The position numbers and the translations under genes were made by a program. A stretch of DNA of 64,000 nt from an uncultured bacterium (lineage in GTDB: Bacteria; UBA8481), in contig CAZCME010000011.1 of the NCBI GenBank assembly GCA_964499705.1, forward strand, positions 62,001 to 126,000, in the 5' to 3' direction. This document shows positions 19,373 to 44,613 of the stretch, one piece after another (position 1 is the stretch's first letter; the number at the start of each line of letters is the position of its first letter). The notes beneath the pieces are model-generated. The model was not told where the DNA came from, did not search any database, and saw only the letters and a list, made by a program, of their open reading frames with translations.

Positions 19373-19444
19373 TCTCTTCACGCTTGTGTTTGCCTGCGCC
19401 GCATTCTACTCGTGGACTTTCAGCCTGACGGCTGAGATCACGCA

Positions 19445-28334: not shown

Positions 28335-28816
28335 TGGATTGTGCCCGCTGCGGGAGCAGACTCCAGATCGCGCTTTGAAAATAGTGCGGTCACTGAGTCA
28401 TCGGATTGCTCGCTACCACGGGGATTTTTGAAGCCATTGAACATCTGTTTACGAATGGTCTGCGCGATGTCCAGAAACTGATCGAGGATCCAGCGGAGAT
28501 GCTCGTCTGTTCCGGTCCAGTTGAGCTTTGCCTTGAGCGTAAGGTTCCGGCGCGCAACCGCGAGTTCGTATCCCGGTGGAAGCAGGCTCACGGAGATCGA
28601 GAATGACATGTGGGCACCTGGATTCAATGTGGGGCCGGCGAAGACAAAACTCGCGCAGATCGCGATCTCGTCTGAATTGCCGTGACCCGCAATAACGTGG
28701 AAACAGGAGTTGTCGCGGGTACGCATGATGCTGAGGGCTCCCGTGGGAACGACGGCAACGCTGAGACCGATGCGCTTCAAGGCGAGAATCAATGGCGAAA
28801 CATGAGGACTATTCAT
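28331..28816 (-). CDS. hypothetical protein
   Basis: MNSPHVSP... overlaps both neighbours. Confidence 0.5.
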   Translation of the reverse strand: MNSPHVSPLILALKRIGLSVAVVPTGALSIMRTRDNSCFHVIAGHGNSDEIAICASFVFAGPTLNPGAHMSFSISVSLLPPGYELAVARRNLTLKAKLNWTGTDEHLRWILDQFLDIAQTIRKQMFNGFKNPRGSEQSDDSVTALFSKRDLESAPAAGTIH

Positions 28817-29492
28817 GGTCAATCGGTAGCCCGCGACTATCGGCTGACGTGGTCGTGCGCGTCTCCATTTCAAGCAGTGGAAATCCTTGTGGTAAATCCG
28901 GATATTCATTTGAGAACAGAATGACCGTGAATTTGATCGTCTCATTCGCTCCTCTGATTTCCAGAGATGACGGCAATTCGCCGACTGCGAGCGTGTCGTT
29001 GCCGCGGATACTGGCGGAGATAATCGGTTGAGGGGTGATTTCGTGAGCCATAGCGACAGCCTCAAAGCCGGTCGGTGAATCCACTTTGCCGGAGCGCGCA
29101 AAAGGCTGTCTGGCGCGGCCTTTACGGGAAAGATGGACAAGAAAGGGAATGCCCGGCACGCTCGCCAGCTTCTTGCGGGGCGCACCGGCAACGTAAAGGT
29201 CGTGTACGGCGGGACGAAACCCACGGGAGATGATCAGCGTCCGCGATGCGTCATCAGCGAGCTGAAGACTTACGTGTGCTTCGAGGAAAAACGCTCGATC
29301 AGTTTTGGTGTCCCGGAGGCCATAGAGGGTGATGCCGATGAGATCTGTGTCGCTGATGTCAGTTTTGGATGAGAAGATCCGGGACATTCCTACGCCAGAT
29401 CGATCCCAGCGATAACAATCCCACCAGTGCGTACGGACCAGGCCGTGTCGGACCTTGGATGGATGAGAAGTAAGGAGATTTCTTTCGGCCAT
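28809..29492 (-). CDS. hypothetical protein
   Basis: first gene of minus-strand operon; ATG 29492 just downstream of a sigma54 motif. Confidence 0.5.
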   Translation of the reverse strand: MAERNLLTSHPSKVRHGLVRTHWWDCYRWDRSGVGMSRIFSSKTDISDTDLIGITLYGLRDTKTDRAFFLEAHVSLQLADDASRTLIISRGFRPAVHDLYVAGAPRKKLASVPGIPFLVHLSRKGRARQPFARSGKVDSPTGFEAVAMAHEITPQPIISASIRGNDTLAVGELPSSLEIRGANETIKFTVILFSNEYPDLPQGFPLLEMETRTTTSADSRGLPIDHE

Positions 29493-29506
29493 GCGGATGC
29501 ATATCA

Positions 29507-29521
29507 GCAGGAGCCGTGCCA
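29507..29521 (-). promoter_or_regulatory. sigma54 (-24/-12) promoter
   Basis: minus strand TGGCACG-GCTC-CTGC. Confidence 0.7.
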
Positions 29522-29869
29522 ACGAAACTGAGAGGTCGGAACTGGTGATGGGTGCTGGACAAATGCTGGGATCAAGCGTGTTAGGCGCGCTTTCGTCCGC
29601 CGTACGTTGCCTGCATGATGCGCCGGAAGAGCCGCAGGTTGCCGCCATCAATTGAAATTCCTGCATTTTTCCGCGCATTCAGGCGCTCTGTGCGAATACC
29701 CGGTGGAGATCATGGTCCCGGATTGAGTAGCAGGCGGCGAGCCTGCGAATAATGGCGAAGCGTCACCGAGTGGTGAAACAGCCACGGCATTTCCTCTCGA
29801 TTTCCTTGTCTTCTCAATGAAATCTGCCATGAATCTCCACAGGCAGTGTGCGTCATCACGAGTTCGGCA

Positions 29870-29884
29870 TGGCCCTTAATTTGC
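29870..29884 (+). promoter_or_regulatory. sigma54 (-24/-12) promoter
   Basis: TGGCCCT-TAAT-TTGC; equivalent position to the motif before the paralogous cassette. Confidence 0.65.
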
Positions 29885-29899
29885 TGGATATTATGCGTG

Positions 29900-32059
29900 A
29901 TGATTCCTGCGGAAAATACCTCAGAGACTCCAGCGAGCGACCACTCGGCGCGTGCGCCGTTCCCCCCCACTCGATTGAGCGATGCTGAATATGCGGTCGT
30001 TAACTCTGCGGCTCACACGGAACTGGAACTCGTGAACAGCACTATCTGTTCCGGCTCCGGTCGGTACGGTGGTGTGTTGGGTGCGAGTTTCCGAAAGTCG
30101 GCTGAATTCTTCTCGGAGTCGCGACGGTTCGCAAGGTTTCTCACCGCGCATGATTCGCGTATTCGGATCGAGGAGCCCGGCTGTATCGAGTTCGACCAGA
30201 CGACCAATCGTCCGCGGTTCGTGGTCGGCGCTCCAGGGCAGACATTTGTGCGTTCCTTTCAGGTGCCGGAGAGCGATTGCTTTTGCGTCTGGGTTCGCGA
30301 ATTCGCGGCGCCGCTCGTGATCGTCGTAATATTGCGGACACGCGACACGAAACCGGAAATCGCCCCGCGCCGTTTTCGCCGGCTCTTCGCGACCAGTTTC
30401 GTCTGTCGAGAGTATTCTTTGCGCGCCGCACTGGCTGAAGAGATTGTGAAAGGCGTCTTCGATGAGCCGTCTGCTCCCGCCTTCAAGTTTCTTCGCGCCT
30501 ATGCGTCGCGGCGCGCGAAGTCGGCTGTCTGGAGCGAGGAAGACGAATCGGAGCAAGGCGCGGATGAAATAAGAACGGCTTCCGATCGACGATCCTTCCC
30601 GCCGAGCTTTGCGGCGCAGGCGATACGAACAAAGGTGATGGCCTCGGTCAGGCGCACTCTCCAGAACATTCTGCTGGCGGCGTTTATCGAGCAAAGGACG
30701 TTCCAGACGGAGAGTCATCGACAATATTTCAGGAATCATCAAAGATGGATGTTTCGCTCGCTGGCGCCGGACACGAGGCGGCGCCGTGGGAGGCTGCGAG
30801 GCGGCGGACAAGCGATGTATCGATCACTCTACGCGCTGCTCTCGCCCTATCTCGCCAACTTCTGGCGACGCATGGTCGATCGCGCCGGCTTCGATCCTGC
30901 ATTCGCGTATCTCATCGAGTCTCCTCATCATGTGGCGTGGATCTTCGCAAAAACCGCTGGGCGCTTTCCGGGATATTACGCTGCGCTTCGACGCCGGCTT
31001 TCAGGCACCAGCATGATGATGGCGCAGATGGCCTTGAAGGTAATAGTAGCCGCCAGAATCGAAACGGGACTCTTTGCCGATGCTGTGTATCATCGCGCTG
31101 ATGGGACACCGGTGTATCTATGTAACAAGCTCGCGGAGATCCGGACCACGAGCAATCCGAAGGATATCCGAGGCGTTCTCCGGATCATTTCGCTTCCGGC
31201 GGATCATGTCTATTCGATCGCATTCCAACTCAAGTTCCATGATGAGAATCTGAGGGAGCAGATTCCCCAGATGAACCGTTGGAGGGATGATGAGAAGTCG
31301 ATCCGCGCCGCGGCGCGCGAGTTCCGAAATATCACGGGGAGTCGTAAGCGGCAGCATATTTGCCATGACATGCTCGTCTACATCGCGGATACAATGCGGA
31401 TGAACATCCCCCCGGACGAGCTGGAAAAAGTCCGGAATGCCTCAAATCTTGCTGTCGCGCTGCGGGAAGCGCGTCGGATTCACGAGATGGTTGACGCGCA
31501 GCGAAGGGGATCCGAACTGGCGCTGGCGCATGGGGAAACGGCAACGATGCCGATTCCGACGCTTCGAGGCCTGAAGGATCTCGAGCTCTTCCGATTAACC
31601 ACCGTCGCCGCCGTTCGGGATGCCGGAGCGGAAATGTCCCACTGTATCGCGACATATGCGAAGAATGCGCTCGCAATTGCGGATCCGCCCTGCTGGTTGC
31701 TTCGCGACGGTTCGGTCTGTTGCCAGGTTACTATTACATTGCTCGACGATGGCGTAGCAGTGCCGAGTGTCCGTCAGTGCTATGATTCTTCGAATCGCGT
31801 GACAGCGGCAAGCCGCAGATTCGCGATGTTCGTCCAGAGTCGTCTGAGGGTCGCGAGGAGGCAACCCGGCTTCAACAATTCGATCAAGGAAGTTATCGCG
31901 GCGCAAAAGCGCCAGGTCGCGGCGCTTGCGAAAAACTGGGCGTGCTCGGGTGCGAACGATGTCATGTCGATGGCGGACGTCGAGGCCCTCGCGAAGAAGT
32001 GGGCCATCTCGGGCGCGAACGTTGTCATGCCGATGGAGGACGACGATGTCGGATTCTAA
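29900..32059 (+). CDS. large protein with C-terminal PcfJ-like domain (copy 1)
   Basis: FRLTTVAAVRDAGAEMSHCIATY resembles PcfJ G-xx-M-x-HC[VI]-xx-Y; start chosen by N-terminal colinearity with copy 2. Confidence 0.6.
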   Translation: MIPAENTSETPASDHSARAPFPPTRLSDAEYAVVNSAAHTELELVNSTICSGSGRYGGVLGASFRKSAEFFSESRRFARFLTAHDSRIRIEEPGCIEFDQTTNRPRFVVGAPGQTFVRSFQVPESDCFCVWVREFAAPLVIVVILRTRDTKPEIAPRRFRRLFATSFVCREYSLRAALAEEIVKGVFDEPSAPAFKFLRAYASRRAKSAVWSEEDESEQGADEIRTASDRRSFPPSFAAQAIRTKVMASVRRTLQNILLAAFIEQRTFQTESHRQYFRNHQRWMFRSLAPDTRRRRGRLRGGGQAMYRSLYALLSPYLANFWRRMVDRAGFDPAFAYLIESPHHVAWIFAKTAGRFPGYYAALRRRLSGTSMMMAQMALKVIVAARIETGLFADAVYHRADGTPVYLCNKLAEIRTTSNPKDIRGVLRIISLPADHVYSIAFQLKFHDENLREQIPQMNRWRDDEKSIRAAAREFRNITGSRKRQHICHDMLVYIADTMRMNIPPDELEKVRNASNLAVALREARRIHEMVDAQRRGSELALAHGETATMPIPTLRGLKDLELFRLTTVAAVRDAGAEMSHCIATYAKNALAIADPPCWLLRDGSVCCQVTITLLDDGVAVPSVRQCYDSSNRVTAASRRFAMFVQSRLRVARRQPGFNNSIKEVIAAQKRQVAALAKNWACSGANDVMSMADVEALAKKWAISGANVVMPMEDDDVGF
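31921..32046 (+). repeat. 63-nt in-frame tandem duplication
   Basis: ALAKNWACSGANDVMSMADVE / ALAKKWAISGANVVMPMEDDD. Confidence 0.8.
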
Positions 32060-32065
32060 TTTTTC

Positions 32066-32944
32066 GTGAACCTCCACGAGCAATTGAGAATCGCATACAC
32101 CAGCGACACTCATGGCAATACGGCGCAATATGCGCAGTTTCTGGAACTGGCCTCCGCGTACCAACCCGACCTCATCATTCTCGGCGGCGATCTGCTTCCG
32201 TGGAAGCGTCGGCACGTGAATCCGGCCATTGTGGATCAACGAGAGTATTTGGTCGATACTCTTGTCCCTATGCTTGCGGCGCATCGACGCACGACGGGTG
32301 CGGACATAGCTCTTCTCATGGGTAATGACGATGTCCGAGTTCATGAGGAGCAATTCGAAGAGCTCTGCGCGAGCGCGCGTCTTCTTACGCTGCAAGAGCG
32401 ATCTCATAGCGTCAGAGGGTGGCAGATTTTCGGTAACTCATGCTGTACGTGGACGCCTTTCAGGCTCAAAGATCACGAATGCTACGACTTGCACTGTGAT
32501 GAGAAGCTTCGCCCCGACTCTTTCGATTATCGCGATCCGGACGCTTTTCTGACAAAGGACCGCAGCGACTGGTATCGGACCCTGGCGATGCGGCTGGAAG
32601 AAATGGCCGGTCAGATTCGTGACTGGTCCCGCGCAATCGCGGTAATCTACCAGCCGCCATTCGGAGGCATACTGGATCGAATGGCCGGGAATCAGTTTGT
32701 GGGAAGCCATGCAGTAAGGAGGTTCCTCAAAAGATACGGTCCTCGTCTGTCAACGCATGGACACATACACGAATCGCCGAGCTATAGCGGCTGCTATTGG
32801 ACGAAAATCGGAAATACAATCTCGATCCAACCAGGGCAGGAAGAAGTCAGATTGCACGCAGTGACGCTGGATACCGCCGACATCAAGGGGACGCTTCGCC
32901 ACACTGTGTTCGGGTCCGCGAGCGAAGAGAAAAATGCTCGCTGA
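32066..32944 (+). CDS. calcineurin-like metallophosphoesterase, Icc-related (copy 1)
   Basis: SDTHG, GGDL, MGNDD, HGHIHE. Confidence 0.85.
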   Translation: MNLHEQLRIAYTSDTHGNTAQYAQFLELASAYQPDLIILGGDLLPWKRRHVNPAIVDQREYLVDTLVPMLAAHRRTTGADIALLMGNDDVRVHEEQFEELCASARLLTLQERSHSVRGWQIFGNSCCTWTPFRLKDHECYDLHCDEKLRPDSFDYRDPDAFLTKDRSDWYRTLAMRLEEMAGQIRDWSRAIAVIYQPPFGGILDRMAGNQFVGSHAVRRFLKRYGPRLSTHGHIHESPSYSGCYWTKIGNTISIQPGQEEVRLHAVTLDTADIKGTLRHTVFGSASEEKNAR

Positions 32945-33683
32945 CACTGTCGGACAGATTGTTTGGATAAAACCGGAATCTTGCAAGCTGTGGTGCGGGC
33001 GGGATGTAACTGAAGGTTGCTGGGTAGAGCGCTCAGTCAAGTTGAGTCCTTATGGCATCGGAACCTATGCAGTCTCCAATCTGGAATTCATGTACTTCAT
33101 TTCGAAGACTTCTTATGATTCGACGGATGATGTCTTTCTCGATCATTGGAAGAGAAGGCGCAAGAATGCACTGAACATCACAGCGGAGATGGCTCCGCAC
33201 CCGGTCGTTTTCGTCTCCCAGGACGATGCTCTCGCCTACTGCAATTGGGCGGGTGCTCGTCTGCCGAGCTTTGAAGAGTGGCAATATGCCGCTCGGGGGA
33301 CGAAGGGTCGGAGGTTCCCCTGGGGTAATGAATTCTCGATCGAGCGCGCCAACACGCGGGTGGCGCGGCGCGGTGGTACGGTCGCCATCGACGCGTATTC
33401 GCCGCAGGGGAACAGCGTTTTCGGAGTCGCGGGGCTTTGCGGCAATGTCCGGGAATGGACGAGCACGCTTTATGAGAAGTCCGGGGCGAATCCAGACGAT
33501 GATCTCTTTCTGGCCTGCGGATCGGCCTTCGATCACCTTTCGACTCAGCAGGATATTCCGCTCAATTGGGCCTACAAGAACCATGCGACGGGCTTTCGAG
33601 TCGTCTATGATGATTCTGAAAGAGCTGAGGCAACAAGGCTTATTCTGCGCGACTACGTGTCATGGGTCGAAGGGCCGCCATGA
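32934..33683 (+). CDS. FGE-sulfatase (SUMF1-like) fold protein (copy 1)
   Basis: HPVVFVSQDDALAYCNWAGARLPSFEEWQYAARG, FPWG, GLCGNVREWT, GFRV. Confidence 0.88.
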   Translation: MLADTVGQIVWIKPESCKLWCGRDVTEGCWVERSVKLSPYGIGTYAVSNLEFMYFISKTSYDSTDDVFLDHWKRRRKNALNITAEMAPHPVVFVSQDDALAYCNWAGARLPSFEEWQYAARGTKGRRFPWGNEFSIERANTRVARRGGTVAIDAYSPQGNSVFGVAGLCGNVREWTSTLYEKSGANPDDDLFLACGSAFDHLSTQQDIPLNWAYKNHATGFRVVYDDSERAEATRLILRDYVSWVEGPP

Positions 33684-34420
33684 GAGCGAGTCACCTGGAG
33701 AAAGCACGCAGGAGCGTTATTCCGACCATGGACGGTGATATCCCCTATTGGACCGTCAGTTTTCCAGCACGCGGAACAAAGGGGGGCAAAGCTCCTTTTC
33801 GACTTCTGCATTTTGGAGGCGCTCCCGCCGACAACGATGAGTATCAACGCCGGAAATCCGCGCCTCCGGAGGAGATCCAGCGTGCGTTGCGTTCCGCCAT
33901 CTCGCTCTCTCATTTCAAACCGGGAGTGCGGCTGATTTACATTCCAAATCCCCCGATGACGCGAACTCGAAGCAACAATGAGCTGTTCATCGAATCGATC
34001 GCGCCGATCACCGACGCGTTTCTCTGTGCCACCGAAGTGCCGCGGGGATATACGCTGGTCTCCAGCTGGTCGGCAGGCTCCGCGTTCATTGCGCCACTCC
34101 TGAAGCGAGCGATTACAGCGGCCTGCGGCCTGCCGGAAGGACTGCACATGACCGCTCCATACATCGTCCCCACGATCAAGGAAGACGGCCAATTCGGGAT
34201 GATACTCGACCAGATAAACGTATCGCTTTCCGTGGGGATCTCGGATCCAGGCAAGCTTCAGACCCTTGCGCTTTCGCAGGGACTTGTTTCAGCGAAGATC
34301 GCACACTCTCTGTATTGGCTGCCATCCGGGCACGACTGGGATGCATCGGCACCTGTCGAGGCATGGGCGCTTCATTTGGCGCGATACGCTCGAGGCGAGC
34401 GGAAGGGCGGTCGGTTGTGA
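33680..34420 (+). CDS. putative alpha/beta hydrolase (esterase-like)
   Basis: nucleophile-elbow-like SWSAG, SVGISD, C-terminal GHDW. Confidence 0.5.
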   Translation: MRASHLEKARRSVIPTMDGDIPYWTVSFPARGTKGGKAPFRLLHFGGAPADNDEYQRRKSAPPEEIQRALRSAISLSHFKPGVRLIYIPNPPMTRTRSNNELFIESIAPITDAFLCATEVPRGYTLVSSWSAGSAFIAPLLKRAITAACGLPEGLHMTAPYIVPTIKEDGQFGMILDQINVSLSVGISDPGKLQTLALSQGLVSAKIAHSLYWLPSGHDWDASAPVEAWALHLARYARGERKGGRL

Positions 34421-34490
34421 TTCTCGATGCCTACGGCTGCGTTTTCGGGAAAGATATTCGCAATATGATCATGGAGGAGGTTCTTTACCC

Positions 34491-35030
34491 ATGATGATCG
34501 TTCTTTCCAATTCGGCCCGGATCGAATGTCTGCAGGGCAACATCATAGATCAAACGGACTGCGACATTCTCGTGAACGCCGCCAACGCCGAACTCCTGCC
34601 CGGCGGCGGTGTATGCGGTGCGATCCATATGGCGGCCGGGCCCGCTCTGGCCGCTGAATGCATGACCCTCAGCCCCATAAAACCGGGACAATGCGTTGTG
34701 ACCGCGGCATACAGCCTTCCAAACAGGTTCATCATACACGCGGTCGGCCCGATTTATGGCGAAGACAAGCCCGAACGCAACCTTCTCGAGTCGGCGTATT
34801 CATCTAGCATTCGAGCAGCCGATCGACGTGGTGCAACTTCCATCGCATTCCCTTCGCTTTCGACCGGCGTGTTCGGTTACCCGATCGAGGAGGCCGCGCC
34901 TGTTGCGCTGACAACAGCTTTAGCATGCGCGGACGAGTGCCGGCATCTGAAGCTCATCCGCTTTGTCCTGTTCACAGACAACGAAATCCACTGCTTTGAA
35001 AAGCATTTGGCATTGCTGAATGCTTCCTGA
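34491..35030 (+). CDS. Macro domain (MacroD/YmdB-type) ADP-ribose processing protein
   Basis: LVNAAN, PGGGVCGAIH, IIHAVGP, SIAFPSLSTGVFGYP; RBS ggaggagg. Confidence 0.93.
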   Translation: MMIVLSNSARIECLQGNIIDQTDCDILVNAANAELLPGGGVCGAIHMAAGPALAAECMTLSPIKPGQCVVTAAYSLPNRFIIHAVGPIYGEDKPERNLLESAYSSSIRAADRRGATSIAFPSLSTGVFGYPIEEAAPVALTTALACADECRHLKLIRFVLFTDNEIHCFEKHLALLNAS

Positions 35031-35057
35031 TCTTTTCATAATGCTCGGCGTACTCAC

Positions 35058-35744
35058 GTGTATCCCCGCAATCAAGTTCGTCGCGAACGCGACGGATATC
35101 GGCGAGTTATGAAACGTGGCGCCAATGTGAGAAAGCGCTCTTCGGCACGACAATATTTGGGACCAATCGTCTGGATTGCGCTTCACGACAACACTGGACT
35201 GATGCATATCGATTGGATTCCCAAGGTGGATTTCATTTCAACGCGTTCTCCCGGTCGCCCGACGCATCTGATTCTCGCAAATACAATGAAGATTCCCGAT
35301 TCCCTGAATATGCGGGAACTTCGGGATCGCGGAGATATCGTTGCAGGGCGAGCGGCTCTCGTGATGAGTGAGTCCGCCCGGGTACTGTACCTGGAATGCC
35401 ACAGCGACTGGGCCGGAACGACGGGCAACGACGAGTATTTCTCGCGGCTCGTTCAGTCTCCCGAGCGCCTACTTTTCGGCGCGCTCACGGAAATTGCTCT
35501 GGGATTCAAGGTCGACCGCGTTGTCGTCGCAGATTTGGGCGGGGGTGCGACGCCGCTGCGGTTCGAAAGCGCGCGAAGATTGGAGCAGCAGGTATTGCGA
35601 ATCGAGCGGTGCGCAGCGATGGGCCAGACGCGTCTTTTGCAGCATGAAGCTTGCCCCTCGGGCGTTGAGACATTGCTTGTGTCGGATCGATTGGCATCCG
35701 ATGACAGCGCTCACATGCATCGCGCGAACCGATCCAGCCAATAG
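35058..35744 (+). CDS. hypothetical protein
   Basis: fills gap between Macro and Gp37/68 genes. Confidence 0.5.
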   Translation: MYPRNQVRRERDGYRRVMKRGANVRKRSSARQYLGPIVWIALHDNTGLMHIDWIPKVDFISTRSPGRPTHLILANTMKIPDSLNMRELRDRGDIVAGRAALVMSESARVLYLECHSDWAGTTGNDEYFSRLVQSPERLLFGALTEIALGFKVDRVVVADLGGGATPLRFESARRLEQQVLRIERCAAMGQTRLLQHEACPSGVETLLVSDRLASDDSAHMHRANRSSQ

Positions 35745-35752
35745 GAGGCTAC

Positions 35753-36604
35753 ATGGGCGAGAATTCGAAGATTGAATGGGCGACACACACATTCAACCCC
35801 TGGATAGGGTGTGCCAAGGTCTCGCCGGGGTGCGATCGTTGCTATGCCGAGACCATGGCGGAGCGTTACGGCTGGGTCATATGGGGAAAGCTCGGCGTGG
35901 GTTCCGGCGAGCGCAAGCGCACGTCGATGGCAAACTGGAAGAAGCCTGTGCGCTGGAATGCTCAGGCGCCTCATTTCGAAAACGAGAACGGGCATCGGCA
36001 ACGCGTATTCTGCGCTTCCCTTGCAGATGTTTTTGACAATCAGATTGACGAGCAATGGCGCGCCGATCTTTTCCATCTCATTCAGAGTACCCCCAACCTC
36101 GATTGGCTTTTGTTGACCAAGAGGCCTCAGAATATCACGCGCATGCTTCCGTCAAATTGGGGCGCCGGGTATCGTAACGTATGGCTCGGAACGACAGCGG
36201 AAGACCAGGCGCATTACGATCAGCGCTGGCCCGTTCTCGCATCGGTTCCTGGGATCCTGCGATTTATCTCCTACGAGCCGGCAATCGGCCCTTTGCGTCT
36301 TGGAGCCTCGAAAGCGCGGCCGGATTGGATGATTTTCGGTGGTGAGAGCGGAGCGCACGCGCGGATATGCCGTCCCGATTGGGCGCGCGATCTCTCGATC
36401 GATTGCCGATCCGGCGGCATCCCATTCTTTTTGAAGCAATGGGGAAGCTACGCGAGCAATCCCCTCGTGCTCGAAGAGGGGCTTTCCCGGAAGGATGCGC
36501 GGCAACGCGACCCGAACGGACAAGGCGGCAAGCTGCTTGACGGGAGAATGATCCATGAGTTTCCTATTTCGCGTCGACCAAATGGCGTTGAAAGCTATGA
36601 TTGA
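35753..36604 (+). CDS. phage Gp37/Gp68 (DUF5131) family protein
   Basis: SKIEWATHTFNPWIGCAKVSPGCDRCYAE, RVFCASLADVF, LLTKRP, GGESG, PFFLKQWG. Confidence 0.92.
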   Translation: MGENSKIEWATHTFNPWIGCAKVSPGCDRCYAETMAERYGWVIWGKLGVGSGERKRTSMANWKKPVRWNAQAPHFENENGHRQRVFCASLADVFDNQIDEQWRADLFHLIQSTPNLDWLLLTKRPQNITRMLPSNWGAGYRNVWLGTTAEDQAHYDQRWPVLASVPGILRFISYEPAIGPLRLGASKARPDWMIFGGESGAHARICRPDWARDLSIDCRSGGIPFFLKQWGSYASNPLVLEEGLSRKDARQRDPNGQGGKLLDGRMIHEFPISRRPNGVESYD

Positions 36605-36694
36605 GTCTTGCGAGAATTCCTCCGTCAGATAATGGGAGCGCGTGCAAAGCACAGCCATCACTTTATTGAGCGAATCCTGAAAAGGAAAAGCACG

Positions 36695-36723
36695 TTGATT
36701 ATTTATCTGTTATAGCATATAAT
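36695..36723 (+). promoter_or_regulatory. sigma70-type promoter of hipBA
   Basis: TTGATT-N17-TATAAT in an AT-rich patch. Confidence 0.7.
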
Positions 36724-36737
36724 ATAAACTATACAAT

Positions 36738-37097
36738 ATGGTAATGCATATTACTAACCGCCGTTCGCAACTTCCGGAGGATTTCCAGAAGTTACTTAAG
36801 TCCGCTCGGAAGAAGTTGGGCCTGAGCCAGGCAGAACTGGGTAAAAAGGTCGGCCTGCCGCAAATGCACATCTCCGGGATCGAGACAGGTAAGATTGTAC
36901 CGCGTTACGACACGCTTCTTGATCTCGTCAGAGTTCTTGGCTTCGACCTCATCCCGGTTCCCAGGCAGATCATCCCCCTGGTGCGCTCGCTGATACGCCG
37001 GCACGAAGATTCCACCTCCGCGTCGTCGAGTGACGCCGGAGAGGGTCCGCTTTACTCGGGCGGTGAAAGCGAGAAGGAATCCACCGATGAATCGTGA
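36738..37097 (+). CDS. XRE HTH antitoxin (HipB-like)
   Basis: RKKLGLSQAELGKKVGLPQMHISGIETG; overlaps hipA start. Confidence 0.85.
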   Translation: MVMHITNRRSQLPEDFQKLLKSARKKLGLSQAELGKKVGLPQMHISGIETGKIVPRYDTLLDLVRVLGFDLIPVPRQIIPLVRSLIRRHEDSTSASSSDAGEGPLYSGGESEKESTDES

Positions 37098-38319
37098 TCT
37101 GAAGAATTTGAGCGTGCTCGCCGTAATTCTTCACGGTCGCCGGATCGGGGTCATCAATCGACTCGGAGGCGACAGCAACGTCTTCTCGTTTGAAGAGGAC
37201 TACATTGACGATCGCGCGCGCGCAACTTTGAGTCTCTCCTTCAAATCACGAAGCGGAAGTCTCCTGACGGAGATCCGACCGACGTCGAGCCGCTTGCCTC
37301 CCTTCTTCTCGAACCTTCTCCCCGAAGGCAGACTCCGCGAATACCTCGCGGAGCGCTCCGGAGTCAAACCCGACCGCGAATTCTTTCTGCTTGCCGCGCT
37401 GGGAGCCGATCTCCCCGGCGCCGTGGTCGTCGCGCCGTATGAACCCAACGCCGCGATGAGTGCGCCCGCGGAATCGGTTGCTCAAGAAGCGCGGCCGCCC
37501 GAGCCGATGCTGCGATTCTCGCTCGCGGGAGTGCAGCTCAAGTTTTCAGCCATGCTCGAAGCTTCCGGCGGACTGACGATTCCCGCGAACGGAATTGGAG
37601 GCTCATGGATCGTCAAGTTGCCGTCAGCGCAGTATCCGGACGTCCCGGAAAATGAGTATCTCATGATGCGGCTGGCCGGCGCCGTCGGCATCGACGTGCC
37701 GAGCGTCAAGCTCATCACTCCGGACCAGGTCTCCGGACTTCCCCGCGAAGCCGGCGCCCTGCAAGGCCGCGTTCTCGCCGTCGAGCGTTTCGACCGCGCG
37801 TCCGGCGGCAGCCGGATTCACATGGAGGATTTCGCGCAGGTCTACGGAATCTACCCGGACGGCAAGTATGAGGGGCGAAGCTACTCGAATATCGCGTCCG
37901 TGTTATGGGCCGAAACCGGCGAGGAGGGGACATACGAATTCATCCGGCGCCTGGTCTTCAACGTCATGATCGGAAACGGGGACGCGCATCTCAAGAACTG
38001 GACGCTTCTATTTCCCGACACCCGCGCGCCCGTGATCGCGCCCGCGTATGACCTCGTCTCGACCGTGCCCTACATCCCGGATGACCGCCTGGCGCTCACC
38101 TTCGGCGGAAGCCGCGGCCTTCATGAGATCACCCGCGATCAGCTCCGTCGCTTCGCCGATAAGGCCGGGCTTCCCATGAAACCGCTCAACGACCTCGTGG
38201 CCGATACCGCGACCCGAATTCGAGACGCTTGGAATGACCTGCCGGAAAAAGAGATTCTGCGCGCCGAAATCCGCGAGACGATTGATGCGCAGATCTCAGG
38301 CGTTGCGGTTCGTCTATGA
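37087..38319 (+). CDS. hipA: HipA family kinase toxin
   Basis: LPPFFSNLLPEG, FSLAGVQLK, VERFDR, IHMEDFAQ, GNGDAHLKN, APAYD. Confidence 0.93.
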   Translation: MNRDLKNLSVLAVILHGRRIGVINRLGGDSNVFSFEEDYIDDRARATLSLSFKSRSGSLLTEIRPTSSRLPPFFSNLLPEGRLREYLAERSGVKPDREFFLLAALGADLPGAVVVAPYEPNAAMSAPAESVAQEARPPEPMLRFSLAGVQLKFSAMLEASGGLTIPANGIGGSWIVKLPSAQYPDVPENEYLMMRLAGAVGIDVPSVKLITPDQVSGLPREAGALQGRVLAVERFDRASGGSRIHMEDFAQVYGIYPDGKYEGRSYSNIASVLWAETGEEGTYEFIRRLVFNVMIGNGDAHLKNWTLLFPDTRAPVIAPAYDLVSTVPYIPDDRLALTFGGSRGLHEITRDQLRRFADKAGLPMKPLNDLVADTATRIRDAWNDLPEKEILRAEIRETIDAQISGVAVRL

Positions 38320-38573
38320 GGACGAGAAAGGGGGATCATGTCCCACAATTCGCTGTTTCTCACGAAAAGAGGTTGCCGATCAAGGGGATCGCGCATGCGG
38401 AAATGGAGCGAAAGTATGTGACTTCGCCTGGCTAGGCGAAACCTGGCGCGCTATTGCGAGAGCGAGCGGCAGAGGATAGCGATTTTCCATCTGAATTCCA
38501 TCATTCAACTTCAGAATGGCGGTCCTCTGCTTGTGTTTGAGCGAGTTCCATACCGAGTATCGTGCGGTTCAAC

Positions 38574-38588
38574 TGGTACGTTTCATGC
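38574..38588 (+). promoter_or_regulatory. sigma54 (-24/-12) promoter
   Basis: TGGTACG-TTTC-ATGC, 15 nt before ATG 38603. Confidence 0.6.
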
Positions 38589-38602
38589 TCCGAAAAAGGC
38601 CG

Positions 38603-40714
38603 ATGGAATCCTCACATCTCATGTCTTCTTCCCTGTCCATCGGAGCCCGGTCGCGCTCTGTCTTTCCTCCCAGCAAGCTTTCACAGGAAGAGCTAACATT
38701 CGTTGAGACCGCCGCACGTGCGGAGCTCGACCTTGTGAACGTGTCCCTTTCATCGGTCTCCGGTCGCTATGCCGGAGAATGGGGTGAGCCCTTCAGGGAA
38801 TGCGCTCGATTCTTTCTGAGAGCTCGCGCGTTTGCTCGCTTCCTGGCCGAATACGATTCCGAACTCCTATTGGAAGATCCTGAATGCATATCCGGCGAGA
38901 TGGAGGCAGGCAGGCCACATTTTATAATCGACGCGCTCGGTCAGGTCTTCGTCCGTTCGTTTCAATTACCGGGGGATGAGTGTCTCGCGATATGGATTAA
39001 AGAATATGCGGCGCCACTCGGCATCATCGTCGTATTTCGAACGCGGGATACGGCGCCAAGAGACACACCCCGACGATGGCGCAGAATATTCGCCACAGCT
39101 TTCACCTACGACGCCTATCCGCTGCGGAGCGATCTGGCGGAGACGATCGCCGCCGCCGTTTTCGATCCGCCTCACTCGCCTTGTTTCAAGCTTCTTCGCG
39201 CCTACGCTACCCGCCGGGCCAAATGGCTCCTCTCGAATCTCGCTAATGATGCCGCCCCGGACGAGCGCAAAACTTGTTTTGAATCCGGTCGGCAAGGGAA
39301 CGACCGCCGCTTTGTCGCGCACACGCTTCGCCAGAAGATCATCTGTTCGGTGCATCGTGCGCTTCGAAATGTCATGCTGGCTGAATTGATCGATCGTCGG
39401 GAGTTTCAGACTGAGACTCAGCGGGCATGCTTTAATCATCACCATCGTTGGCTGTTTCGATCGTATGCGGGCGACACGCGCCGACGGCGAGGGAAACTGA
39501 GCGGAGGTGGATCGGCGACTTACCGAGAGCTATTCGCTCTCCTTTCGCCGTTCATGCCGAGTTTCTGGCGCCGCCTAGTCGCGCCTGATGGAATGGACCC
39601 GGCCTATGCCTACATGATTCGAAACCCCCATCAGATCGCATGGTTGTATCTTCGGACTTCCGGTCGCTGGCCTGGATGGTATCGCGCTTTAAGACGGCGA
39701 TTGAAACCGAGCGGCATGTTACTCGCGCAGAGGATCCTGCAAAACCTGGTCGCGAGCAGAATGAATCTCGGCGTTTTTGCAGACAAGGTTTTTCACGATG
39801 AAGCAGGATCTCCGATCTATCTTCAGGATCGCTTACCCGATCTTGGATCAAACGGCCACTCGAAGAAACTTCGAGGTTTGTTTAGAATCACCATGCTGCC
39901 GCCGCGGCATGTCTATTCGATCAACTTCAATTTAGCTCTTCAGATGTCCTCGCATGAGTGGCTCAATCATGTGGTCGCGCAATGGCCTGACGATGAACGA
40001 TCGATTCGCGTAGCCGCAAAAGAGTTTCGCAAGATTACCGGCTCAAGAGAGCGACATCGCATTTCAGACGCGATCCTTGTATATCTGGCGGATACGCTCA
40101 AGATCCGGCTGGTTGACGGCACATTCACGAATTTTGGAACAGTCGGAAATCTCGCGGCGGCGGTCGTGGAGGCACGGCGGATTCACGAAGCAGATGCGAT
40201 CGCAAGAAACGGGGCGCGCCTGGCGCAAGGGCACGCCGAAATGCCGACGATCGCGTTTCCTCCGATCAAGGGCTTGCAAAAACTCGAGACTTTTCGCCTG
40301 AAGACCGTCGGTGAGATCGCGGAGGCCGGCGCGAATTGCGGACACTGCATTTCATCATATATCGGCAGTGCGGTCGGAGCCGAGTCGCGGGCGAGTTGGT
40401 TGTTGCGAAGCGGAACTGTCTGTTCTCAAATCGAGGGGATGACAGATGGAGAGGGCGGTGTCTTTCGGCTGAAAGTGCGGCAGACGTTCGATGCACGGAA
40501 TCGAGTAAGCCGTTCGTCCCGGCGATTTGCCGCGCAGGTCGCAAAATGTCTTGAGAGTGCCAGAAAGCAACCCGACTTCGAAGCCGGAATCGTGGATGTG
40601 ATAGCGTCACAGAAGCGACGAATCATGGAGTTGGCGAAAATGCATCCGTGTCCGGAGCGGCCGGTTGAGAATAGTGAGAATGACGATGAAGTTGCGTTTG
40701 AAGGAGCCGACTGA
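38603..40714 (+). CDS. large protein with C-terminal PcfJ-like domain (copy 2)
   Basis: full-length paralog of 29900..32059; FRLKTVGEIAEAGANCGHCISSY. Confidence 0.6.
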   Translation: MESSHLMSSSLSIGARSRSVFPPSKLSQEELTFVETAARAELDLVNVSLSSVSGRYAGEWGEPFRECARFFLRARAFARFLAEYDSELLLEDPECISGEMEAGRPHFIIDALGQVFVRSFQLPGDECLAIWIKEYAAPLGIIVVFRTRDTAPRDTPRRWRRIFATAFTYDAYPLRSDLAETIAAAVFDPPHSPCFKLLRAYATRRAKWLLSNLANDAAPDERKTCFESGRQGNDRRFVAHTLRQKIICSVHRALRNVMLAELIDRREFQTETQRACFNHHHRWLFRSYAGDTRRRRGKLSGGGSATYRELFALLSPFMPSFWRRLVAPDGMDPAYAYMIRNPHQIAWLYLRTSGRWPGWYRALRRRLKPSGMLLAQRILQNLVASRMNLGVFADKVFHDEAGSPIYLQDRLPDLGSNGHSKKLRGLFRITMLPPRHVYSINFNLALQMSSHEWLNHVVAQWPDDERSIRVAAKEFRKITGSRERHRISDAILVYLADTLKIRLVDGTFTNFGTVGNLAAAVVEARRIHEADAIARNGARLAQGHAEMPTIAFPPIKGLQKLETFRLKTVGEIAEAGANCGHCISSYIGSAVGAESRASWLLRSGTVCSQIEGMTDGEGGVFRLKVRQTFDARNRVSRSSRRFAAQVAKCLESARKQPDFEAGIVDVIASQKRRIMELAKMHPCPERPVENSENDDEVAFEGAD

Positions 40715-41592
40715 TGAAATCCAGCGTCGATCTCAAAATCGCTTACACGAGCGACGTGCATGGTTGCGATTCTCAGTATCGAGATTTCCTCTCGCTGGCG
40801 AAGGAATATCGAGCGGATCTGATTATTGTCGGCGGAGATCTGTTCCCTAAAAAGCAACCGACGATACAACAGGCGATCGCGGATCAGCATTCCTATCTTG
40901 TCGGAACGTTCATCCCGATGCTCGCGGAACATCGGCGATCGACCGGCGCTGACATTTTACTTCTCATGGGCAATGACGATGTGCGCGTGCATGAAGAATT
41001 GTTCGAATTCACCTGCGCGAAAGCGGGATTGCTCACTCTTCACGAGCAATGCCACACGATCAAGGGTTGGCAGATATTTGGAAATTCCTGCGTGACGTTC
41101 ACCCCCTTCCTCCTGAAAGATTGGGAAGTCTATGATTGCATCAGCAGTGAGGAGTTGCGACCCGATTCAGTCGATTATCGATTCCCGGGAACGATTCTGA
41201 CCAAAGATCGATCTGATTGGCATCGTACGATCGCCATGCGCCTCGAGGAGTCAGCCAGGCAAATTCTTGATTGGTCGCGCTCTATCGCCGTCATCCATCA
41301 GCCGCCCCATGGCGGCATCCTGGATCAATTGTGGAACGGCCAATTTGCCGGCAGCCTTGCGGTAAGGAGATTCATCGAACAGCGGCAACCGGCCCTCGCA
41401 TTTCATGGTCATATTCATGAATCGCCCTCGAAAAGCGGGCGGTGGCATGAGCGCATTGGCAGAACGTGCGCGATTCAACCGGGGCAGGACTTTGTCAAGT
41501 TGCACGCCGTTACACTTTGCACGTCGGATATTCCCGGTTCTCTGCAGCACTCGATATTCGGGACGGCTGAACGAAATCGCGATGATCGCTGA
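40714..41592 (+). CDS. calcineurin-like metallophosphoesterase (copy 2)
   Basis: SDVHG, GGDL, MGNDD, IHQPP, HGHIHE; 292 aa like copy 1. Confidence 0.87.
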   Translation: MKSSVDLKIAYTSDVHGCDSQYRDFLSLAKEYRADLIIVGGDLFPKKQPTIQQAIADQHSYLVGTFIPMLAEHRRSTGADILLLMGNDDVRVHEELFEFTCAKAGLLTLHEQCHTIKGWQIFGNSCVTFTPFLLKDWEVYDCISSEELRPDSVDYRFPGTILTKDRSDWHRTIAMRLEESARQILDWSRSIAVIHQPPHGGILDQLWNGQFAGSLAVRRFIEQRQPALAFHGHIHESPSKSGRWHERIGRTCAIQPGQDFVKLHAVTLCTSDIPGSLQHSIFGTAERNRDDR

Positions 41593-42346
41593 TCTCGTCG
41601 GGAAAGTCGTTTGGCTTCATCCAGAGCCGTGCATGCTTCACGCTGCGAGTGATGTCGCATTTTGCAGATGGGAATTGCGGCCCATTAAATTATCTCCGTT
41701 TGGAATCGGCAAGTATCCCGTGACAAATCTGGAATTCATGGCATTCGTGTGGGAGACGAAATATGACGCGTGCGACGACAACTTCGTCGCTCACTGGAGG
41801 AAGAAGGGGCGTGAGAAGGGACGGGCGGGGTGGATATGTCCTGCCGAGGCAGTGTCTGCGCATCCCGTCGTTTACGTCTCGCACGATGATGCGAGCGCAT
41901 ACTGTGCGTGGGCCGGTGCACGCTTGCCGACCTACGAAGAGTTGCAGTATGCGGCACGTGGTAACACCGGTTGGCGATTCCCTTGGGGTAACGAATTCTC
42001 AATCGTCAAGGCTGTCACACGTGAATCTCCTCTTCGTCGAACGGTGCCCGTCGATGCATATTCACCGCAAGGGGACAGCATCTTTGGTGTCACAGGTCTT
42101 TGTGGGAATGCCTGGGCATGGACGGATTCCGTGTTCGAAAAGTCCGATAGAGATTCGGAATTCGATCTTTTTCTGGCCTTCGGCTCGGCTTTCGACCATA
42201 TGTCCTTCCAGCAGGAGATACCGTTGAATCGGTCGTACAGAAATCATTCGGTTGGAATGAGGGTTTGCTACGACAGGCCTGAAAACGCGGCCGCTACCGG
42301 AGAAAAGTTGCACGCCTTCATAGCAAACATGCCGAAGCTACGATGA
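41582..42346 (+). CDS. FGE-sulfatase fold protein (copy 2)
   Basis: YPVTN, HPVVYVSHDDASAYCAWAGARLPT, FPWG, GLCGNAWAWT. Confidence 0.88.
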   Translation: MIADLVGKVVWLHPEPCMLHAASDVAFCRWELRPIKLSPFGIGKYPVTNLEFMAFVWETKYDACDDNFVAHWRKKGREKGRAGWICPAEAVSAHPVVYVSHDDASAYCAWAGARLPTYEELQYAARGNTGWRFPWGNEFSIVKAVTRESPLRRTVPVDAYSPQGDSIFGVTGLCGNAWAWTDSVFEKSDRDSEFDLFLAFGSAFDHMSFQQEIPLNRSYRNHSVGMRVCYDRPENAAATGEKLHAFIANMPKLR

Positions 42347-42397
42347 AATTTGACTCATCACGAGATGACTTCGCCGTCCATGACGATAAGGGCCGGA

Positions 42398-43342
42398 TCA
42401 GGGAGCCTCGTTGGGCAGAATATCGCGCCATGAATTACAGCCCATCCGGAGGATCCACTCATTCTGCACCAGCCCGATTGTTCCTGATTGCCCATTCCAG
42501 TTCAGAATGGCCATGCTGTGATCCAATAGTCGGTTTCTATTCTTTCCAAAGGTAAGGTCTTCGAGAATCCAGGAGGTGGTCGTGCTTCCATCCAAGGGAT
42601 ACTCGTGCTGGAAACTGATCGGATGAACGTGGCCGAAGAGATGAAAGGCCGGATTTCGTTCTCTGAGAATCCGCGCTATTTGTTGAGAACCTTTCATCCC
42701 CGGAAATGCTCCGAACACAGCATCGTGCGACAACAGAATATCGAACGGCTTCACGGCATAGCGAAGGAGATTGACGGCCTTTTCCGACATCATGTACGGC
42801 GCGTTGTCCCGGGCATCCTCTATGCCCCAGAGTCCCGCAACTTGAAGAGTGTTGCCGTCGGCGCCTTCGATCGCGGCCACGCTCCCGTCGGCAATGCAAT
42901 GAAAGGATTCATAGCAATCGACCGGAAAAGTGTTCGATGGCGCGCCGAACGCGGGGGAACCATGACGCTGAGAGTTCAGGTAATCGTAATCCTCGTGATT
43001 CCCCGCAACGAACAGAATCGGGCAGGAAACCGCCGACTCGTCTCCGAGCCCTGGCATCGGCTCAAAGTAGGCCATTACCTCCTTGTGCGGTCGAACGAAG
43101 AACGTGCTGAACCCCGCTTCCTCAGATTCATAACGTGCCGCCCATTTTCTCGTCGCGTTGTCCAGCCGCGCCGGGTCTGGAAAGCACCCAAGGTCTCCGG
43201 CGATGAGCGCGCCATCGAGCTTGACGCCGGAAGCGATCTGCCAGCACCTGAGACACTGCAGAACGAGTCGCAGGTGACCGTGGACGTCGGAGAAGAGGGC
43301 GATTTTCATAGGGAATTCCAATGGCGGTATGAAATGTTGCAT
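42398..43342 (-). CDS. metallophosphoesterase (distinct subfamily)
   Basis: SDVHG, AGDLG, AGNHED, LLSHD, FGHVH; likely start MKIALF. Confidence 0.85.
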   Translation of the reverse strand: MQHFIPPLEFPMKIALFSDVHGHLRLVLQCLRCWQIASGVKLDGALIAGDLGCFPDPARLDNATRKWAARYESEEAGFSTFFVRPHKEVMAYFEPMPGLGDESAVSCPILFVAGNHEDYDYLNSQRHGSPAFGAPSNTFPVDCYESFHCIADGSVAAIEGADGNTLQVAGLWGIEDARDNAPYMMSEKAVNLLRYAVKPFDILLSHDAVFGAFPGMKGSQQIARILRERNPAFHLFGHVHPISFQHEYPLDGSTTTSWILEDLTFGKNRNRLLDHSMAILNWNGQSGTIGLVQNEWILRMGCNSWRDILPNEAP

Positions 43343-43436
43343 GATTCAAATCTCCGGACGGCGTTCCGAGCAGATCGGAGAACGGCGTTTACTTGCTTAC
43401 GGAGGATATCTGCCGACGAAACTTCTGAACTCTGTT

Positions 43437-44306
43437 TCATGGAAGGTACCGCCCCGCGAAACCGTCAATGTTTACGCCGACACGATTGGCGCCCATGATT
43501 TGACGGGCCGTATGAACGATCTCGTCAAGATAACTCAAATTTATCGACCTCGGTTCCACCGCGGCCATGACTGAAGGAAGATGCGTTTGCAGAGTGCGCC
43601 GACCGTCCGGCGTCCCGTCTCCTTCTATGAAGTGATCGATGACCACGGCGTCAGCACATTCCGAAATTCGATCGAAGAAGCAACTCGGTTCACGAATCGG
43701 CAGAAGCGGCGAGACGGTGATAACAGTTCGTATGCCGTCATCTGTAAGTGTTTTCGCGGCATGCAGACGTCGGGCCACGGAACTGGCGTGCGAAGCAAGA
43801 CCAGGAATGGATTCCATGTCCGTTTCAATGGAGATGTGAACGCGTAATTCACAACGGGACTGAAGCCTGCGGTAGAGATCCAGATACTCAACCACGCCGT
43901 GAGTGTGCGTCTGGAGGATCATGAGGTCAGGAGGTTCCTCAGCCATGGCTTTCAGGAGCTGCTCCGTTATTCGACAATGAGTTTCCTGCGGGAGAAAAGG
44001 CTCCGTGGAGCTCGAAAGGAAGACGCCAAATCGTCCCCGTGCCCGCCGTGCCCAGCTTCGCTCACGTTTCACATTCGCAAGATACGCCGCTGCGGCGTTT
44101 TTTCTGATTTCCAGAAACGATCCCCACGGCCTTCCCTCCGTCACGTAAACGTTGTGTTGAACATAGCAGGCGACCCCGCAGAGTGCGTTTCCAAAGGAAC
44201 ACCCCCGATACGGTTGCGCGGAATGCGACGCCACAGTTGTGAGAAAACCTGTAGTGCGAGCGAGAATGTTCTTGACGCTTGTTTCGGATATATTCATAGG
44301 GTGCAC
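43437..44306 (-). CDS. SPL (spore photoproduct lyase)-like radical SAM protein
   Basis: QPYRGCSFGNALCGVACY (expanded Cys motif), FLSSSTEPF, SIETD, TVSPLLP. Confidence 0.8.
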   Translation of the reverse strand: MHPMNISETSVKNILARTTGFLTTVASHSAQPYRGCSFGNALCGVACYVQHNVYVTEGRPWGSFLEIRKNAAAAYLANVKRERSWARRARGRFGVFLSSSTEPFLPQETHCRITEQLLKAMAEEPPDLMILQTHTHGVVEYLDLYRRLQSRCELRVHISIETDMESIPGLASHASSVARRLHAAKTLTDDGIRTVITVSPLLPIREPSCFFDRISECADAVVIDHFIEGDGTPDGRRTLQTHLPSVMAAVEPRSINLSYLDEIVHTARQIMGANRVGVNIDGFAGRYLP

Positions 44307-44409
44307 ATGACTACTCGGACATCATAGTGATGCGGAGGATCAGCGCAACCACGACGAATACCGCGCTTGATGTCATTGTTGCAGCAATACCGCCTTATAT
44401 GCCTCCGCC

Positions 44410-44613
44410 ATGGGCGAAGAACCTCCAATGAAGGATCTACTTTTTCCCAGCCTCGAATGCATGAAACGTTTGGCAGAGGAGATCGGTCGCCAGCACGCCG
44501 CTTTGAGCTCGATCCGAGAACTCATTCGCCCTTACATCGACCAAGTACCCGGAGTCACCCCGAATCAACTCGAGATGGCCTGCGCTAGGATCATAGTCGC
44601 GAAGTTGAAGTAG
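44410..44613 (+). CDS. small hypothetical protein
   Basis: 67-aa helical ORF. Confidence 0.35.
   Translation: MGEEPPMKDLLFPSLECMKRLAEEIGRQHAALSSIRELIRPYIDQVPGVTPNQLEMACARIIVAKLK

Follow-up and report, generated by a model that had tools for sequence, protein, structure and literature searches.

Here, we describe a three-gene cassette that occurs twice within a 64,000-nucleotide stretch of DNA from an uncultured bacterium (GTDB lineage Bacteria; UBA8481; GenBank assembly GCA_964499705.1, contig CAZCME010000011.1, positions 62,001 to 126,000 of the forward strand); this whole stretch is called the window, and its own numbering is used throughout. Each cassette encodes a large protein with a PcfJ-like C-terminal domain, a calcineurin-type metallophosphoesterase and a protein of the FGE-sulfatase / C-type-lectin fold. 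The module is real, old and selected; its gene combination and a ~450-aa orphan region of the large protein are new, while each component is of a known fold or family. We tentatively read the cassettes, with a probability of about one in three (0.35), as an island-borne conflict module in which a lectin-fold protein would serve for binding and a phosphoesterase as the effector, with a PcfJ-like protein as their partner; a role in host defence is narrowly favoured.

Results

The list of open reading frames (ORFs) and their translations gives two co-linear cassettes on the forward strand, at 29900-33683 and 38603-42346. In the first, the large gene (29900-32059) encodes 719 aa from the ATG at 29900, in agreement with the public gene call, within a frame that is open from a GTG at 29846; after a 6-nt gap follow the phosphoesterase gene (32066-32944, 292 aa) and the FGE-fold gene (32934-33683, 249 aa). 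The second cassette repeats this order on the same strand, with a large gene of the same architecture (38603-40714, frame open from an ATG at 38516), a phosphoesterase gene of again 292 aa (40714-41592) that overlaps it by 1 nt, and an FGE-fold gene (41582-42346) that encodes 254 aa from the ATG at 41582 in a frame open from 41405. In both cassettes, the phosphoesterase and FGE-fold genes overlap by 11 nt (32934-32944 and 41582-41592), and FPP stands at residue 21 of both large proteins, counted from ATG 29900 and ATG 38603. The gene order, the position of FPP, the phosphoesterase length and the 11-nt overlap had been pointed out in an earlier note made from the sequence alone, and all of them were reproduced here from the ORFs and translations. 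That note also held all six frames to be intact; the reading frames are indeed open, but a near-invariant residue is substituted once in each cassette. The large gene is present in exactly two copies in the genome, and the only two FGE-sulfatase genes of the genome are those of the cassettes. A 252-aa ORF of no known family (33662-34420) starts 22 nt upstream of the FGE stop of cassette 1 and could belong to that operon as its fourth gene; no counterpart lies 3' of cassette 2, and the genome contains no paralogue of it.

The two cassettes are well diverged. In BLASTP, the large proteins of the two copies share 47% identity over 672 aa, the phosphoesterases 63% over 286 aa and the FGE-fold proteins 54% over 248 aa; nucleotide identity is 53-61%. 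Third codon positions are identical at 33-43%, so that the synonymous divergence (dS) is saturated; the nonsynonymous divergence (dN) amounts to 0.35-0.55 across the three gene pairs. With dS saturated and where an estimator converged, the large gene had a dN/dS of 0.26, the phosphoesterase gene one of 0.09 and the FGE-fold gene values of 0.135-0.20. This ratio had been set beforehand as a check, with a value near 1 as the refuting outcome, and the observed range of 0.09-0.26 lies far from it: all six cassette genes are under purifying selection. An assembly duplication is excluded because the copies align at the DNA level only in short stretches of 66-69% identity. On saturated dS, low dN/dS and these short alignments, the proposal of an old, selected module rather than an assembly artefact is borne out. 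Contigs from four read runs of two studies gave depth in 30 of 30 bins of the interval 28000-44500; no single run contig spans this interval, and one of the runs' samples may be the source sample. The listed runs include no RNA run. A low-depth contig (2.7x, run X3) leads from 36926 back to 32272 across a junction of 25 unmatched letters; it is probably a chimeric unitig but could be a rearranged variant.

Both phosphoesterases match PF00149 above its cut-off of 21.5 bits (copy 1, 44.7 bits, E 2.7e-11; copy 2, 48.9 bits, E 1.4e-12). Their 1703 homologues are at most 39% identical, and by sequence the cassette enzymes are divergent members of a widespread ~287-aa calcineurin-type family of bacteria and archaea with the motifs DxH, GD, GNDD and GHxH. 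They share length and motifs with this 'Icc-related' family, but differ from it in their identity of at most 39%, in the FGE and PcfJ genes that the surveyed loci of the family lack, and in a tyrosine of copy 1 at a position where 31 of 32 aligned family members have histidine. We take this position to be the motif-IV metal ligand of the superfamily. Copy 2 keeps all metal-ligand motifs. The nearest solved structures, Aquifex aq_1956 (2yvt) and E. coli YfcE (1su1), are uncharacterised or generic. A third metallophosphoesterase gene (42398-43342), unrelated to the cassette enzymes, adjoins a radical-SAM gene; the pair occupies 42398-44306 on the reverse strand, convergent with cassette 2, and the radical-SAM protein gave a weak match, well below cut-off, to 'radical SAM mobile pair protein B'.

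In PADLOC, the cassette phosphoesterases match the candidate PDC-S10 (E 1e-12 to 5e-13), with the best stretch at profile positions 125-201 of 223, i.e. about a third of the profile length. In contrast to the three-gene cassette, PDC-S10 is a single-gene candidate and not a tested defence system. The FGE-fold proteins had no PADLOC match, and of the large proteins copy 1 gave a marginal match to PbeA (E 0.0078) and copy 2 none. This check, which the earlier note had called for, yields a partial PDC-S10 match of the phosphoesterase, but no full-length match to any system.

The FGE-fold proteins match PF03781 with E values of 4.6e-33 (copy 1) and 8e-33 (copy 2). Cysteine is absent from the C-terminal segment of both, where the relative P0156 has a C-x5-C pair that presumably represents the catalytic FGE cysteines. 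As had been noticed before, the proteins are accordingly best described as predicted FGE folds devoid of the catalytic cysteine pair. Outside this genome, the closest relatives are two short FGE proteins (39-43% identity), followed by TIR-FGE fusions among others (~30%). In the counterpart of the variable, ligand-binding stretch of retroelement targets, 24 of 34 positions are identical between the copies, above the average of 54%, and the earlier suggestion of two specificities is not supported. A search of the whole genome for a template repeat of either FGE gene (blastn, word size 7) returned only the gene itself and its paralogue, both reverse transcriptase genes (RVT_1, n=2) lie on other contigs, and no hypervariable stretch was seen in the FGE genes across the sequencing runs. 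We rejected a diversity-generating-retroelement target, there being no template repeat and no linked reverse transcriptase.

A word-indexed search with the large protein returned the protein itself as the sole match, and a two-copy profile (HMMER, 1.84 billion representatives) found 28 proteins at E <= 0.001, with only the protein itself below 1e-10 and the other 27 restricted to profile columns ~483-720. The first ~450-480 residues are, at the level of sequence comparison, a new orphan region with no detectable relative. The two copies are conserved here to the same degree as elsewhere in the protein, with a peak of 70% around residues 295-334, and the Arg-rich motif named in the earlier note falls inside the orphan region. 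The unrecognised region had been put there at ~550 aa; the orphan part comprises ~450-480 residues and is followed by the PcfJ-like domain. Plasmid and phage records gave no match to the large protein (tblastn), nor did phages to its relatives P0013, P0027 and P0008; PHROGs had no entry matching the large proteins, and the large-protein profile found nothing below E 0.9 among PDB sequences. A metagenome scan with the large-protein alignment gave 356 pattern matches, of which none was confirmed. ESM features of residues 1-460 reached a best score of 0.80, a lead only.

Sequence comparison and structural models both identify the C-terminal ~195 residues as a true PcfJ-like domain. PF14284 (PcfJ-like) itself matched copy 1 with 14.7 bits (E 0.027), below the 25-bit cut-off, and did not match copy 2; it was found in 4 of the first 10 relatives, in one of them above cut-off. 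With hhalign, residues 482-675 of copy 1 (31289-31870, forward strand) aligned to 23 relatives at a probability of 99.8% (E 3.7e-28), and by ESM features 28 of the 30 nearest clusters were PcfJ sets of 584-671 aa (score 0.96). The full-length AlphaFold model has a pLDDT of 57.7, with good values only for residues ~455-680; fold searches with it were uninformative, the N-terminal ~450 residues lying below 50-55. Modelled alone, the C-terminal 246 residues reached a pLDDT of 87.5 and a pTM of 0.72 and form a helical bundle, followed by a helix, a three-stranded sheet and a helix. This domain model had no Foldseek match in the PDB at E <= 0.001, and with VIA the best Z scores, 6.2 for a LonA N-fragment (76 residues) and 5.7 for half a GNAT fold (86 residues), were below the level that the tool regards as meaningful, so that a solved fold is neither assigned nor excluded. 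Against BFVD, Foldseek gave 7 matches at E <= 0.001 with probabilities of 0.97-1.00 and with low TM-scores (0.26-0.34), the targets being multi-domain; most named rows were PcfJ-like phage proteins, including those of Acinetobacter, Listeria, Enterococcus and Bacillus phages. Thus, the hhalign alignment and the viral fold matches support the earlier reading that the large proteins end in a PcfJ-like motif.

Copy 1 keeps all family-conserved His, Cys and Asp residues of the PcfJ positions, i.e. the H-C dyad, the C-A-Q cysteine and the Q-C-x-D motif. In copy 2, threonine replaces the Q-C-x-D cysteine, which is present in 28 of 29 PcfJ-like sequences. Many named tailed phages contain relatives of the domain, as do viral contigs 125-190 kb long, and these contigs together with the named PcfJ-like phage models agree with the earlier statement that such domains occur on phages and conjugative elements. 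With the PcfJ-like family (PF14284) of tailed phages and conjugative plasmids, the cassette protein shares the ~195-residue C-terminus, the conserved positions and the fold; it differs in its sub-threshold Pfam score (14.7 versus 25 bits), in the added N-terminal region of ~450-480 aa that has no relatives and, in copy 2, in the loss of one conserved cysteine. A literature search found no paper on the function of the PcfJ family, and the available parts of PMC5512222, PMC7159879 and PMC7824862 do not mention PcfJ.

At its C-terminus, the large protein of copy 1 has an acidic tail whose last residue is phenylalanine and which resembles the tail of the genome's own SSB (an acidic stretch followed by I-P-F). 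A similar stretch is present in copy 2, where it is not terminal. The last residue is aromatic in 10 of 27 relatives, six of which end in P-F or P-Y. A subset of PcfJ-like proteins (P0008, P0014, P0015, P0018, P0022, P0024, P0033 and copy 1) has tails that end in P-F, P-Y or V-F, often after acidic residues as in SSB, and these tails may be a docking motif common to the subset. Copy 1 also has, in its tail, a 63-nt (21-aa) tandem duplication with 81% nucleotide identity (31916-32046), which copy 2 lacks. Locus L087 (13-7479), from a viral contig of 190 kb, encodes poly(A)-polymerase/CCA-adding head, HD and PcfJ-like domains within a single ORF of at least 2489 aa; L088 is near-identical to it, and the giant ORF looks like a polyvalent phage protein.

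Do the proteins of a cassette form a complex? For phosphoesterase 2 and FGE 2, the predicted complex scored 0.42 (runs 0.06, 0.42 and 0.51), while the best control scored 0.01; the runs have at least 75% of contacts in common, and the pLDDT of the partner is at least 80. The mark used for this score is reached by 58 of 80 solved complexes and by 2 of 110 mismatched pairs, and scores at 0.60 or under that pass it comprise 7 of those 80 complexes and both passing mismatches. The prediction suggested in the earlier note, in which one of three runs failed, gives weak support for a phosphoesterase-2/FGE-2 complex.

Sigma-54-like motifs of the form TGG-N10-TGC stand upstream of both cassettes on the forward strand. 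The motif of cassette 1 (29870-29885) has 1 mismatch to TGGCAC-N5-TTGCW and lies 30 nt before ATG 29900, and that of cassette 2 (38574-38589) has 2 mismatches and lies 29 nt before ATG 38603. Window sites with at most 2 mismatches number 31 against 22.6 expected, a count that 3 of 100 shuffles reach, and the motifs are not significant alone. The earlier observation of such a motif at the same offset is right as to presence and, to within 1 nt, as to position; sites of this kind are not enriched in the window. A pattern built from both cassette sites, which is circular for these two, finds one more site, a perfect consensus at 19358 that precedes an operon beginning at 19445. The perfect consensus sites at 19358-19373 and 58212-58227 lie upstream of forward-strand ORFs that start at 19445 and 58468. 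The genome contains rpoN; of two nearby genes for enhancer-binding proteins, one lies at 53811-55601 and the other outside the window, at contig position 131932-133098. From the sequence, sigma-54 promoters are plausible for both cassettes, and with ATGs 29900 and 38603 as starts their transcripts would be almost leaderless. A sigma-54 regulon may span much of the island. Scans for sigma-70 promoters and terminators stayed at shuffle level.

Housekeeping genes fill the first 17.7 kb of the window, among them MutY-like, enolase and aminotransferase (16549-17661) genes. A tRNA-Met gene (17718-17790) marks the start of the island and is followed by an HTH_17 (excisionase-like) gene (17887-18513) and then by a long run of mostly unknown genes. 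Synteny with a relative of the same family leaves the contig right after the aminotransferase gene and continues on another contig of this genome, and the methyltransferase gene at 48.6-50.1 kb has no counterpart in 4 relatives. Based on this synteny break and the lack of a methyltransferase counterpart, we place the cassettes in a large genome-specific region. The data suggest an island of at least 46 kb within the window, and GC drops from ~0.60 to 0.51-0.58 across the genome-specific region. No integrase, conjugation or virion genes were seen among the scanned ORFs of the window and the rest of the contig, and no att-like direct repeats of the tRNA end were found.

Cassette 1 is flanked by genes for an ADP-ribosylglycohydrolase (26292-27296, reverse strand), a GNAT acetyltransferase (27687-28334, reverse strand) and a macro-domain protein (34266-35030, forward strand); ADP-ribose-handling enzymes are thus found on its flanks, and an ADP-ribosyltransferase was not identified nearby. 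Between the cassettes lie a 228-aa ORF with no family match (35058-35744) and, downstream of it, a gene for a DUF5131 (phage Gp37/Gp68-type) protein (35753-36604) that matches the PADLOC candidates PDC-M41B/PDC-M30B (E ~1e-48). HipB-like HTH and HipA kinase genes (toxin-antitoxin, 36738-38319) stand directly upstream of cassette 2, preceded by a good sigma-70-like promoter (36695-36723).

Discussion

We speculate that in the proposed conflict module the lectin-fold protein would be a non-catalytic ligand-binding subunit that pairs with, gates or aims the phosphoesterase. The latter would provide the catalytic output, most likely, judging from its family, as a nucleotide or nucleic-acid phosphodiesterase. 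The large PcfJ-like protein would act as the third partner and link this pair to incoming or replicating foreign DNA, by way of the PcfJ domain and of the SSB-like acidic, Phe-ended tail of copy 1. Transcription would probably start from sigma-54-type promoters under the control of island-encoded enhancer-binding proteins. No candidate writer was found, which leaves the earlier idea of a writer/eraser/reader system without its first member. Between the two possible sides of a conflict, defence is favoured only narrowly over counter-defence: a slight lean to defence comes from two selected copies in a cellular island and from defence-island-like neighbours, while the typical presence of the PcfJ family in invaders pulls towards counter-defence and weighs against our preferred role.

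Pairings of these modules have been predicted before, as far as the accessible parts of the sources go. FGS/CLec domains and calcineurin-superfamily phosphodiesterases are recurrent variable modules of predicted conflict systems (PMC7159879), PF00149 occurs with NACHT and CLec in retroelement targets interpreted as antigen sensors (PMC10907252), the targets catalogued in PMC5758913 include metallophosphatase + FGE-sulfatase architectures as well as PcfJ-like motifs, and FGE sensors are fused to proteases and MPE-like effectors (bioRxiv 10.1101/2025.11.14.688446). The treatment of FGE-fold domains as binding or sensor modules in PMC7159879, PMC10907252 and the bioRxiv preprint agrees with the earlier statement that they are often ligand-binding. 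With the phosphoesterase-NTPase-CLec/FGE 'antigen sensors' (Kaur et al. 2020, PMC7159879; Wu et al. 2018, PMC5758913; Dore et al. 2024, PMC10907252), to the extent that these sources describe them, the cassette shares the module pairing, i.e. a calcineurin-type phosphoesterase with an FGE/C-type-lectin fold without FGE chemistry, as well as the cytoplasmic location and the occurrence in paralogous copies. In contrast to these sensors, the modules of the cassette are separate, translationally coupled genes; there is no STAND, NACHT or other NTPase, vWA or MoxR component, no template repeat and no linked reverse transcriptase, and a PcfJ-like protein is added. Indeed, Pfam finds no NTPase domain in the six cassette proteins, the phosphoesterase and FGE genes abut directly, and we rejected a STAND/NLR-like phosphoesterase-NACHT-CLec sensor because the central NTPase is absent. 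The cassette could instead represent the 'phosphoesterase + switch + lectin-fold sensor' architecture, predicted for bacterial immune sensors, in a version that is split and has no NTPase.

Is the combination of the three genes a recurrent one? The neighbourhood check called for in the earlier note found no co-occurrence at the surveyed phosphoesterase, FGE or PcfJ loci or in the other genomes of the phylum, and does not support generality; its results weigh against the proposed conflict module. Among the best 80 of at least 592 confirmed phosphoesterase-family loci (one genome per species), none has an FGE or large-protein homologue within 6 kb (tblastn). Outside this genome, members of the family sit among housekeeping-type genes (KsgA, MetK, NadA), and their sole recurrent neighbour is a PEP-utilising-like protein, at 10 of the 80 loci. 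A scan of genome contigs with the two-sequence phosphoesterase alignment gave 79 pattern matches, none of them confirmed. From the FGE side, neither the phosphoesterase family nor a PcfJ-like gene was found at the best 80 of 416 confirmed metagenome loci, which hold the closest FGE relatives. Pfam PcfJ occurs in 7 of 401 sampled genomes, and the phosphoesterase is missing from all 9 PcfJ loci surveyed (3 viral and 6 genomic; a seventh genomic locus, on a 2.9-kb contig, was left out). One PcfJ locus, on a 3.1-kb contig, has an FGE gene that is convergent and unrelated and encodes a membrane-anchored, coiled-coil protein; its position is read as coincidence. Neither the phylum's 4 other genomes (completeness 86-96%) nor 60 sampled relatives contain the large protein; the phylum comprises five species-level genomes, and the module is known from one uncultured genome. 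On the same side of the balance stand the housekeeping look of the wider phosphoesterase family, the lack of a PADLOC match to any known defence system beyond the partial one to PDC-S10, the weak complex score with one failed run of three, and the half of the large protein that has no confident fold in the full-length model (pLDDT 57.7).

The cassettes could also be counter-defence or establishment cargo of an integrated mobile element, a possibility to which we give perhaps one chance in four; the PcfJ-like protein would then act as in phage or plasmid entry, the phosphoesterase would destroy nucleotide immune signals and the lectin-fold protein would bind a host factor. Such cargo would fit the viral distribution of the PcfJ-like relatives, with contigs of 125-190 kb, many named tailed phages and one such domain inside a viral ORF of at least 2489 aa, as well as the SSB-like acidic tail with its terminal Phe in copy 1 and the start of the island at a tRNA gene with an adjoining HTH_17 gene; signal-degrading phage enzymes are discussed in the available part of PMC7824862. 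However, no integrase, conjugation or virion genes were seen among the scanned ORFs of the window and the contig rest, no phage or plasmid record matches the large protein, and two diverged copies kept by purifying selection in a cellular genome are at least equally compatible with a use by the host. A module for end-processing or repair of nucleic acids, in which the PcfJ-like domain and the phosphoesterase would work on RNA or DNA ends with the lectin fold as an accessory, is doubtful. The giant ORF of L087 does repeat a pairing of PcfJ-like domain and phosphoesterase (a poly(A)-polymerase/CCA-adding head and an HD phosphohydrolase), and calcineurin-type phosphoesterases heal RNA ends in Pnkp-type repair systems. 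This basis is however one fusion at two near-identical loci, the cassettes contain no ligase, kinase or methyltransferase partner, and the FGE fold is left without an obvious role.

The partial NCBIfam matches of the FGE-fold proteins to SenA, EgtB and PvdO (E 1e-15 to 1e-6) would fit an enzyme of this kind in an ordinary small-molecule or protein-modification pathway, but the scores of 58-65 bits, against curated cut-offs of 360-500, cover only the shared fold, the DinB-like iron-binding domain and biosynthetic neighbours are absent, and the region is specific to this genome; we regard such a pathway as improbable. Decaying duplicates without current function would account for the near-invariant family residue substituted once per cassette and for a module known from one genome only, and are highly improbable in view of dN/dS values of 0.09-0.26 and of six frames that stay open over 249-719 codons despite saturated synonymous divergence. 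At the other end stands a more elaborate form of the conflict module, in which both cassettes are an obligate pair and build an NTPase-free immune sensor around a domesticated phage or plasmid PcfJ-like protein. It would be a long shot that cassette 1, with a complete PcfJ His/Cys site and an altered phosphoesterase metal site, is complemented by cassette 2, with a complete phosphoesterase and a lost PcfJ cysteine. It would be equally far-fetched at present that the orphan region is a new sensor or scaffold, that the SSB-like tail acts on single-stranded foreign DNA and that the lectin-fold protein gates a phosphodiesterase within such a pair.

In summary, we found an old and selected pair of three-gene cassettes, for which an island-borne conflict module with a narrow lean to host defence is our preferred, tentative reading. 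The value of this finding is limited by a single uncultured genome in a five-genome phylum, and the reading comes from sequence and models. Large tailed phages and conjugative plasmids commonly encode PcfJ-like proteins, and a cellular operon in which one is joined by a phosphoesterase and a lectin-fold protein offers a testable handle on the family. If the proposed conflict module is true, the pairing of 'phosphoesterase + lectin-fold sensor', known only from predicted fused NTPase proteins, would also exist as separate, NTPase-free subunits.

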